Virus record (IMG/VR): IMGVR_UViG_3300017540_000003 | Span: 1 to 58,807 of that record | Length of the DNA: 58,807 nt | Source: a virus | Taxonomy: Duplodnaviria; Caudoviricetes | Reading direction: 5' to 3' (one strand) | Shown here: positions 30,142-32,080 of the stretch, in pieces | Layout: the number at the start of each line of letters is the position of its first letter | Position numbering within the stretch: position 1 is the first letter of the stretch | Notes under the pieces: model-generated | What the model was told of the DNA's origin: nothing | The model's input: the letters and a program-made list of their open reading frames with translations, nothing else | The model's database searches: none | Made by a program: the position numbers and the translations under genes

Positions 30142-30482
30142 CTGCCTCGCGGTAGGGATTCCTGATGCACGGCTCGTCAAACGTCTCGTGCTCGAACACA
30201 TCTCGCTCCCCCGCATCGAACCCTTCGTCCCAAGCGGCAGACTTCACGGATCGCAGCCAGGTGTCGAACTCTTCACCAGATGCTTCGTGTCCGCTGGACG
30301 GGGTGCGCTTCCATGCGCTGTACTTCTGCCAGCCGTGACGCACATCCGCTTCGTCAATGTCAATCACTCTTCCCACTCCAATCCTGTGTAATCGTACTCT
30401 CCCCGCGGAGGCCTGGGCGTCACCATCCGCCGCACCTCATCCGCCAGAGCATCCAGCCGTGCCTCGTAACTCGCGTCAGTCA

Positions 30483-31280
30483 TCATCCGGCGACCCGATT
30501 GTCCTGCGACTCTGCACCCTGATGATACTCCCTCGCTTGAATCCACAAGTCTTTCAGGATCGCCTTCGCCACGGCGCGCACCGCCCGATTGTGCTGGTGG
30601 GCAAGCGTCAATGGCTCTCCTTCGCCAGTGGTTGCGTCCATGTACTTCAGTCGCGCATCGTCGTAGATAGCGCGGTACGGGCCACCGTTCTTGATGATCG
30701 GCTGCACGATGTTCCAGGCGCGCATCTTGGCGTCACTCGACCAATTTGCCTGCTGACCCTTGCGACGCCGCTGACCTTCGCCGTTAACGACCGAGTACCC
30801 GCAATACGCCCACAGCTCGGAAACGGTACGGGGACGCGACTCGACAAGGACATGCTCAGTGCCCTGCTTCTCGTGAATCTCCGCCCAGTACGGGTCTTTC
30901 ACCGCAGCAAGAAGGCGAGCAACCGTCTTCAAGCCAAGACCCTTCTGCTGCTTGACCCACGACCCGAGGGGGTGCGCCTTCATGCGCTTCTCCAGTTGCG
31001 AGGTAATCGACTTCTCAAGTGCTTTCAGACTGTCCATGAGCGTCTGAGTGGCAACAACTGCAGGATCGGAGTCTGGCAGAGCGAGTCCTCGGACAACGCC
31101 ATCCTCATCGGCGGCGATACGGGTCATAGCGCCCAGTCGGTTGCCGGTTGCCTTCCGAAGTCGCTCTACGTCGTCCAACTGTTGAGCAAGAATCTCCAAC
31201 AGCGGGTCGTAAAGAAGGGGGCCTCGCGGGGCTTCCATGGGTTTCGTAGCTTCTCGGGCGAGGCTGGTCTTGGTGGGCAT
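30483..31280 (-). CDS. TasA-like Nop/IS110-Tnp-domain protein with no recognisable nuclease domain
   Basis: Coiled coil, then KGLGLKTVARLLA, SELWAYCG, RRRKGQQANWS, YRAIYD, HNRAVRAVAKAILKDLW; no DEDD RuvC domain; adjacent dual-spacer array; AAAGGAG RBS. Confidence 0.8.
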   Translation of the reverse strand: MPTKTSLAREATKPMEAPRGPLLYDPLLEILAQQLDDVERLRKATGNRLGAMTRIAADEDGVVRGLALPDSDPAVVATQTLMDSLKALEKSITSQLEKRMKAHPLGSWVKQQKGLGLKTVARLLAAVKDPYWAEIHEKQGTEHVLVESRPRTVSELWAYCGYSVVNGEGQRRRKGQQANWSSDAKMRAWNIVQPIIKNGGPYRAIYDDARLKYMDATTGEGEPLTLAHQHNRAVRAVAKAILKDLWIQAREYHQGAESQDNRVAG

Positions 31281-31508
31281 TTCTGCTCCTTTCGTTTAGC
31301 GCAGTCGCGTCGGTCATGGTTTCCGGTATTATGGTGGACTGCGGAAGTTTATCCCCGCCTGCTGGATGCTTGGTTTTGAGAATCTGCTAAGAGACGGGGT
31401 GCCGGGGCGAATGTTGAACGGGTTGCGACTTGACGATAGCCCCTGGCGAGTTTTGAATTATAGTGCCGGACGAACACACTCTGGTTTTCGCGGCTGCCAA
31501 GGCCCGGC
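31221..31508 (-). ncRNA. TIGR-like stem-loop array, five units (31465-31508, 31401-31447, 31353-31399, 31300-31343, 31221-31264)
   Basis: Each unit is stem-NNN-9nt-CG-4nt-CCA-9nt-CG-stem with different spacers and stems; the 31353 unit is degenerate. Confidence 0.85.
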
Positions 31509-31516
31509 AAATCTGT

Positions 31517-32080
31517 TCACTCCAGGTGCAAAAGAATCTCCTGGACACGCTTGATGTCAAGATCGCCAACGCGAGCAACCTTCTGCGCCGCAATCTCCCG
31601 CTGGAGCGCCTTGAACTCGTCAGCAACTCTCTGGTTGGCCTTGGCCTGATTCTCGCGAACCTGAATCACAATGTCAAGCATCGGAACCGTCAGGTCTCCC
31701 AGGCGAACGTCACCGAAGTCGCCAGCGTTCACCACACGACCGAAGTAATACTCTTCCATGCGACGCCGCGCCGCGCCGAACTTCTCATTGCGAAGCGACG
31801 GGCGGAAATCGTCGTCAAGGAACACCTGCGGCTCCGGCTGTGCGTCACCCGCCTTGTACTCCAGGTCGGCACGCTTCAGCGCCTCTGTCCCGGCGCGGCG
31901 GTCAATGTTGAACGTGGTCGGAATCTGCTTCAGCACCAGGTCGAACAGCACATCCCGATACTGCTCCTCGGGAATCTGCTCCACCACCTCGCGCGCCACC
32001 TCGTTCCGGTCGAACACCTCACGACTATTGATCGCATTGCGGATCGCGCGCGACACGGAAAACAGATCAGTTGCAATCAT
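31517..32080 (-). CDS. Hypothetical protein embedded in the TIGR-like locus
   Basis: 187 aa, AAGGAGG RBS, flanked by guide units on both sides. Confidence 0.75.
   Translation of the reverse strand: MIATDLFSVSRAIRNAINSREVFDRNEVAREVVEQIPEEQYRDVLFDLVLKQIPTTFNIDRRAGTEALKRADLEYKAGDAQPEPQVFLDDDFRPSLRNEKFGAARRRMEEYYFGRVVNAGDFGDVRLGDLTVPMLDIVIQVRENQAKANQRVADEFKALQREIAAQKVARVGDLDIKRVQEILLHLE

Follow-up and report, generated by a model that had tools for sequence, protein, structure and literature searches.

The window analysed, a stretch of 58,807 bases, is the complete virus record IMGVR_UViG_3300017540_000003, with direct terminal repeats, and comes from a soil phage. The genome carries a WhiB gene and its helicase is nearest to those of Microbacterium phages (43%) and Clavibacter phages (39%), which points to an actinobacterial host, probably of the family Microbacteriaceae. 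On the minus strand a companion gene (32080-31517) is followed by four non-coding guide units (U1 to U4), a ribosome-binding site (RBS) and an open reading frame (31280-30483) that encodes a TasA protein and contains a fifth unit, U5, near its 5' end. From upstream to downstream the elements are:

31517 to 32080, minus strand: companion gene, PHROG match phrog_4604, function unassigned, directly upstream of the array.
31464 to 31509, minus strand: U1, non-coding, 7-bp stem including one G-U pair, 7 nt past the companion gene stop.
31401 to 31447, minus strand: U2, non-coding, bulged stem (box C CTA, box C' CCG).
31353 to 31399, minus strand: U3, non-coding, degenerate (box C CTT, box D' TC, box D CA), missed by the strict motif.
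31300 to 31343, minus strand: U4, non-coding, canonical CCA boxes, 6-bp stem, with CUU just 5' of it at 31347-31345.
31286 to 31292, minus strand: Shine-Dalgarno (SD) sequence AAAGGAG, 5 nt ahead of the ATG at 31280 and inside the 35-nt U4-U5 linker.
31265 to 31277, minus strand: coding leader of 13 nt, A/C-rich (92% A+C), from the start codon to the U5 stem.
31221 to 31264, minus strand: U5, stem-loop tigRNA unit over tasA codons 6-20, identified by its motif and by relatives in which the scaffold is kept and the spacers changed (stem 31264-31259 / 31226-31221; box C 31258-31256; spacer A 31255-31247; loop 31246-31238; spacer B 31237-31229; box D 31228-31227).
31215 to 31217, minus strand: CUU 3 nt beyond the U5 3' arm, a candidate processing mark kept in the relative L089 (TasA 88% identical in amino acids); the motif is that of Xu et al. 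(2026, bioRxiv 10.64898/2026.09.09.750476).
30483 to 31280, minus strand: tasA, 265 amino acids, identified by sequence, profile, AlphaFold, Foldseek and phrog_4285.

A homologue of the companion gene lies upstream of tasA in 55 of the 69 related loci having at least 2 kb of upstream flank, and the homologues tested (5/5) all belong to phrog_4604; the product is a candidate processing or spacer-acquisition factor. The terminator scan found none on the sense strand from the companion gene to tasA, and the promoter and terminator scans gave results at chance level. Upstream of the companion gene, the stretch at about 32205-32160 (minus strand) holds TTGACA and a short inverted repeat, is nearly identical in L089 and is a candidate operon promoter that the promoter scan did not call. 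A perfect TATAAT occurs in the U1-U2 linker (31462-31457, minus strand), has no matching -35 box and is absent in L089. The U4-U5 linker, at 35 nt, compares with a median of 7 nt for linkers in relatives (n = 415). Antisense to tasA and across U4-U5 runs a 340-codon open reading frame (30357-31379, plus strand), probably the shadow of GC-rich coding sequence.

The protein matches TasR (PDB 9MTY; E 1.8e-18) and TasH (E 2.6e-6) by sequence and, more strongly, by profile (E 2e-33 and 3e-19, respectively); a Pfam search gave no match. Its AlphaFold model, built from 24 sequences with a mean pLDDT of 86, shows a coiled coil and a Nop domain, and Foldseek ranks 1-10 for this model are TasR or TasH without exception (E 7e-11 to 8e-7), with IS110-family recombinase structures ranking below Tas (TM 0.47-0.48). 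The PHROG label 'transposase' (phrog_4285), and with it assignment to the IS110 recombinases, was rejected as a misannotation; the N-terminal DEDD RuvC domain is absent. About 80 mycobacteriophage records likewise carry a TasA labelled as transposase, DNA-binding or hypothetical protein. Only some 25 residues precede helix 26-53, and an in-frame TAA (31298-31296) closes the frame six codons upstream of the ATG at 31280. The model and these reading-frame limits place no N-terminal RuvC or HNH domain in the 265 residues, and since they leave no space for a nuclease domain the protein is classed as TasA. The C-terminal Y/H processing loop is also absent: the counterparts of SpTasH Y289/H296 would sit at +15/+22 from the last conserved Trp, the tail of the protein has 19 residues after that Trp, and the pair occurs in 0/114 tails among 120 proteins examined. 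At the other end, residues 1-15 have pLDDT values below 50 and residues 11-20 a mean of 50; residues 1-15 are predicted to be disordered, which places U5, in frame, in a predicted disordered stretch of the protein.

U5 is the fifth stem-loop guide unit of this TIGR-TasA array, which adjoins tasA and consists of five tandem units with a palindromic stem and a 32-nt core made of two 9-nt spacers and a 9-nt loop. Read on the minus strand (31264-31221), U5 is composed of stem GCCTCG, box C CCC, a 9-nt spacer A, the 9-nt loop CGAAACCCA with box D' CG and box C' CCA, a 9-nt spacer B, box D CG and stem CGAGGC, so that a perfect 6-bp stem encloses the core. In the reading frame it extends from the last two bases of Ser6 to Gly20 (SLAREATKPMEAPRG). 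The strict unit motif, which was derived from these very units and is hence biased in their favour, was run over the 58.8-kb genome in both orientations and matches three times (U1, U4 and U5, all in the array), with no match in 100 dinucleotide shuffles. In an independent control with a general unit detector, the first 40 of 101 related loci contained 204 sense units and a single antisense one. Together, the shuffles and the sense bias exclude a chance origin of the layout. The Rfam search gave no match, the repeat search of the genome missed the array, and the 6-bp stem of U5 would likely miss the 8-bp rule that TIGRFinder applies to variant boxes. The stem pairs with a probability of 0.99-1.0 in a 200-nt context and is missing when the 320-nt array as a whole is folded to minimum energy.

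Three alleles of U5 indicate what is preserved at this site. Between L089 and the window, the RBS and leader show 0/30 changes, the scaffold 2/26, the spacers 14/18 and the tasA core 108/612; the rates of spacers and scaffold differ with p = 2e-6. One of the two scaffold changes converts a G-C stem pair to G-U and the other makes box C canonical (CCA). The in-unit ATG (Met15, 31238-31236), in frame in the window, is gone in L089, where the residue is Ser. L089 has two upstream units against four in the window, with the in-gene slot kept. The third allele, in a shallow contig of run X3 (depth 4.6), has 18 differences counted in all, of which the 13 listed could be apportioned: 12 fall in the spacers and none in the scaffold. 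Read by hand, its frame is open, Met15 is lost and the first box C is CCC. The deep contig of the same run has exactly the U5 letters of L089 and was counted once with it. A 151-nt contig of run X4, from another study (depth 2.7), carries the window's allele unchanged. A conserved scaffold with replaced spacers in three alleles argues for selection on the RNA, and the swapping of both spacers at one fixed site, the scaffold being nearly untouched, bears on how TIGR arrays gain spacers.

Translation could begin, ahead of the core, at Met1, Met15 or the TTG of Leu28, all in frame. Were Met15 or Leu28 used, U5 would be wholly or half non-coding, and many relatives do begin just 13-21 codons ahead of the conserved DD motif. 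However, Met15 is created by a spacer base and is gone in both other alleles, and the TTG of Leu28 is without an SD sequence and lies beyond the conserved L22-x-x-D25, which a start there would drop, while AAAGGAG (31292-31286), the sole strong SD sequence, is invariant in L089. Since L089 also keeps the leader, Met1 is the start with high probability; initiation at the ATG at 31280 is very likely, and either internal start is most improbable. The initial annotation had described a unit with a perfect stem and exact spacing within codons downstream of AAAGGAG and this ATG, in DNA that would be both protein-coding and a guide; it mentioned neither Met15 nor the CCC form of the first box C. The anatomy was confirmed, and start-site conservation together with the open frame makes dual coding, in which the U5 DNA serves as tasA codons and as a guide unit, highly likely on comparative grounds. 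The contrary case raised there, a start downstream of 31221, fails with Leu28, the next in-frame start, and the hypervariable blocks anticipated in homologue N-termini were seen: over the first 22 residues, L089 and P0002 differ only at 9-12 and 15-17.

Selection on the frame was analysed in relatives. The starting set was 153 loci, drawn from named phages, IMG/VR and metagenomes and including the window, with two duplicates of it taken out. The core could be mapped in 147 of them; filters on score and length left 136, and 101 of these formed the non-redundant set. The alignment-based scan recovered the IMG/VR homologues, of which a single-protein scan had found none. Upstream units are present in 95/101 loci, and 50 of these 95 have no in-frame start from the last unit to the core; in those 50 the last unit usually lies 67-94 nt before the DD motif (83 in the window). 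Forced-coding units fall in unit frames 0, 1 and 2 with counts of 0, 28 and 40. Frame 0, which reads box D' as a codon, is used in 0/33 loci against 13.7 expected under random frame shifts (0/100,000 permutations). When starts were defined by the SD sequence (63-locus subset), the counts in frames 0/1/2 were 1/65/54 for coding units and 51/46/53 for non-coding ones; this control is fairer than the one upstream of an in-frame stop, whose very construction favours frame 0. In the tas frame, stop codons are found in 0/68 forced-coding units and in 39/165 non-coding units upstream of the SD-defined start. The p values overstate independence because related loci share ancestry; the direction is clear, and the counts indicate that selection keeps the tas frame open through coding units.

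The layouts are diverse. Morrissey gp42 has that of the window, an array followed by an RBS, an ATG and one in-frame unit, while in Rich gp50 the start lies in a GTGA overlap with the preceding gene and three units are then read through; Bethlehem gp71 has no in-gene unit. A strong SD start is present in 42 loci, of which 21 have a coding 5' unit and the other 21 lack one; other relatives have up to 7 coding 5' units, and in 50/101 loci there are units downstream of the DD motif and ahead of the stop codon. The predicted homologues P0067, P0079, P0082, P0092, P0119 and others carry N-terminal extensions of about 205 residues with repeated spacer-variable peptides, probably corresponding, judging from the protein sequences, to about ten in-frame units. 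L070 shows, at about -330 to 0 from the DD motif, one in-gene 5' unit, then an HNH-like stretch and then the Nop core, and is possibly a stem-loop TasH. The arrays of L057 and L077 have short regular periods (42 and 45 nt; 55-62 nt is usual), one frame throughout and shared stems. Only non-coding arrays were found in L006 and the other cluster A1 mycobacteriophages fetched.

Targets were predicted as spacer A followed by the reverse complement of spacer B, a geometry deduced from the 3' overhangs presented in the available part of PMC12045711. At its best site in its own genome U5 has 5 mismatches, whichever geometry is used and with gaps of 0-2, and shuffled spacers give 4-5; U1-U4 match the genome at chance, and U5 matches neither its own promoter nor its own gene. 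DNA-level self-repression through U5 was rejected because its match in its own genome is no better than those of shuffled spacers. A search with 680 distinct guides over 1.5 Mb (the loci and this genome, both strands) found 0 perfect and 0 one-mismatch sites, and three control geometries in the same search found 1-3 one-mismatch sites. In IMG/VR the predicted U5 site has 6 exact matches, which fall into two families of sequences whose GC content, 31-38%, does not fit an actinobacterial host or phage; they were taken as chance. The other geometry has 0. The 11 matches in 7 GTDB genomes, against about 17 expected under uniform composition, were also taken as chance. In 401 genomes from the family of genome G001 there were 2 matches at no more than one mismatch, one of them in the genome picked for its match, and 4 for the reversed control; these too were taken as chance. 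The 18-bp U5 site is matched exactly at five contig ends of Glycomyces salinus (G002; L161, L163, L165, L167 and L171), within a repeated sequence that looks like the end of an insertion element, the total match count being at chance level. In U1, at 31500-31464 (minus strand), spacer B and the next bases match the unit's own predicted target at 15/18, because spacer A partly extends the stem; this is probably chance, as 11/100 shuffles reach 3 mismatches.

The searches gave no target for U5, and three of its four boxes are canonical, the first box C being CCC and not CCA. The CCC form is rare in relatives (7 units against 326 with CCA among open-frame units, counted with a detector that favours CCA), and the available text on PlTasA reports stacking contacts of the box C adenine (10.64898/2026.08.11.744272). 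U5 has CUU on its 3' side only, and this may be incidental because the same bases encode Leu22; in relatives, CUU within 8 nt 5' of the stem is enriched at non-coding units (48/166) and less so at first coding units (3/21), the background being 127/3434. These features, together with the shielding that translating ribosomes would provide and the off-consensus state of U1-U3, would fit a unit that is translated and is a weak or dead guide in the window strain, its overlap with tasA being inherited packing of no regulatory role. Against this stand the RNA selection seen in the three alleles, the recurrence of the window's allele unchanged in run X4 and the canonical CCA of L089. Loss of guide function is accordingly judged improbable, and U5 is likely to be a working guide.

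The explanation that we favour, with moderate confidence, is that U5 is an in-frame guide unit and that each transcript is likely either translated into TasA or cut to yield the U5 guide. We infer that U5 and tasA share a transcript, from which a host RNase, probably, would cut the guide free. A cut at the base of the U5 stem would leave the RBS and start codon on one fragment and the remainder of tasA on another; provided that there is a single transcript, excision of U5 would sever the RBS from the core, and one molecule could therefore give a guide or a protein. The peptide encoded by U5 would be a predicted disordered tail tolerating any stop-free spacer. Once mature, the guide would be taken up by a TasA dimer, and the guided dimer would go to an 18-bp DNA site, to bind and silence it with no cutting. 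The initial annotation attributed cleavage of the mRNA to the protein itself, and this part found no support: because the Y/H processing loop is absent, TasA is probably not the cutter of its own mRNA, and such cleavage is very improbable. It is possible that TasA bound to U5 blocks the mRNA or promotes cleavage by the host RNase; feedback dependent on TasA is a tentative proposal.

The distance from start codon to hairpin bears on this proposal. The U5 stem begins at +17, after 13 A/C-rich bases, and the first in-gene stem begins at +16 to +21 in 15/21 loci with a strong SD sequence and a coding unit. Over the range +15 to +25, which was picked after viewing the data, the first stem is found for 16/22 strong-SD starts and 42/176 in-frame ATG or GTG codons without an SD sequence (p = 9e-6), the 16 loci forming 6 clusters at 60% identity; depletion below +15 is non-significant (1/22 versus 21/176, p = 0.48). 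In E. coli, according to the part of PMC5435973 available, the initiation footprint covers 13 nt downstream of the start codon, and a hairpin lying outside it lowers translation less than 2-fold. As the stem begins just past the ribosome footprint, we predict that the bare U5 hairpin leaves initiation unblocked. On the simplest reading, the hairpin is held as near the start as translation permits.

A bound hairpin could behave differently. Free TasA dimers may bind U5 on their own mRNA at the ribosome entry channel, which would obstruct translation at an early stage or make the stem base accessible to the host RNase, and synthesis would fall when protein exceeds guides. A dimer bound in the +15 to +25 range would lie right against the 13-nt footprint, L089 retains the in-gene slot while the upstream units go from 4 to 2, and the dual-repeat TaTasR protein is needed for mature guides according to the available text of PMC12045711. 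The same spacing is, however, equally explained by footprint avoidance, and the clustering and the non-significant depletion given above count here as well. The switch would be dispensable, because many relatives, among them half of the strong-SD loci, have no in-gene 5' unit, whereas others have more coding 5' units than a switch requires and many also have units in the core. The 19-residue tail without the Y/H dyad and the want of a match between U5 and its own promoter or gene also argue against this negative autoregulation, which we regard as unlikely and which would supplement, not supplant, the division of transcripts between guide and protein. A more specific form, more doubtful still, is that actinophage tasA keeps a guide slot one footprint past its start as an RNA-level feedback switch, the slot being rewritten with stop-free spacers. 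Unloaded TasA would capture U5 on its own mRNA, halt its own synthesis and convert the message to guide. If so, protein would be matched to guide supply, and closely related phages would record the rewriting of TIGR spacers in place, with stop-encoding spacers filtered out.

Guides within genes were already described for TIGR-Tas by Xu et al. (10.64898/2026.09.09.750476), whose tables may include this locus. In the part of that work available, tigRNAs occur in tas 5' ends and a coupling to translation is suggested; intragenic BlTasA tigRNAs were sequenced and are processed, MbTasA represses transcription, the Y/H loop is absent from all stem-loop Tas with a host RNase suspected to act at CUU, and internal promoters are named as a further possible supply of intragenic guides. 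The same part does not discuss start-site evidence, frame avoidance, footprint distance or feedback. In the openly accessible TIGR-Tas literature (including 10.64898/2026.07.30.739390) we found no mention of the start-to-stem footprint spacing and no test of autoregulation. Because the overlap itself is already described, the present locus is of value as a clean case for testing: the arrangement is minimal, with one in-gene unit and four outside in a complete phage genome, its relatives include named actinophages that can be grown on laboratory hosts (Morrissey, Rich), and the question of Xu et al., whether guide maturation is coupled to Tas translation, could be tested here with one reporter. 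If feedback holds, an RNA-guided effector would be autoregulated by capture of its own mRNA.

Compared with known systems, and as far as the available texts describe them, the locus shares with BlTasA of Xu et al. the stem-loop units, each having box C/D and a pair of 9-nt spacers, placed in frame within a disordered region of tas, and with their systems in general the lack of a Y/H loop, a TasA without nuclease and the 5' end among the unit sites. The tested BlTasA units are in the wedge loop, whereas U5 is at the TasA N-terminus. PlTasA (PMC12045711; 10.64898/2026.08.11.744272) is likewise a Nop-only effector with a stem-loop array and dual 9-nt spacers, and it has an unresolved N-terminal loop, comparable to the predicted disordered N-terminus of the window TasA (Faure et al. 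2025; Guan et al.); it differs in having 13 units in three subarrays against 5 here, and no coding-sequence overlap is mentioned for it in those sources. The dual-repeat SpTasH and TaTasR have the same fold and the same loop motif spacing but differ in having HNH or RuvC nucleases as well as edge repeats. In SpTasH, guide processing is the work of the protein itself through Y289/H296 (PMC13421893, in the part available), of which the window TasA has no counterpart. The TnpB reRNA at the tnpB 3' end (ISDra2; 10.64898/2026.09.09.750255, in the part available) is a guide cut from the mRNA of its own effector, as is only proposed for U5; unlike TasA, TnpB is an unrelated RuvC protein that processes its own mRNA, the overlap is at the 3' end and a single guide is produced.
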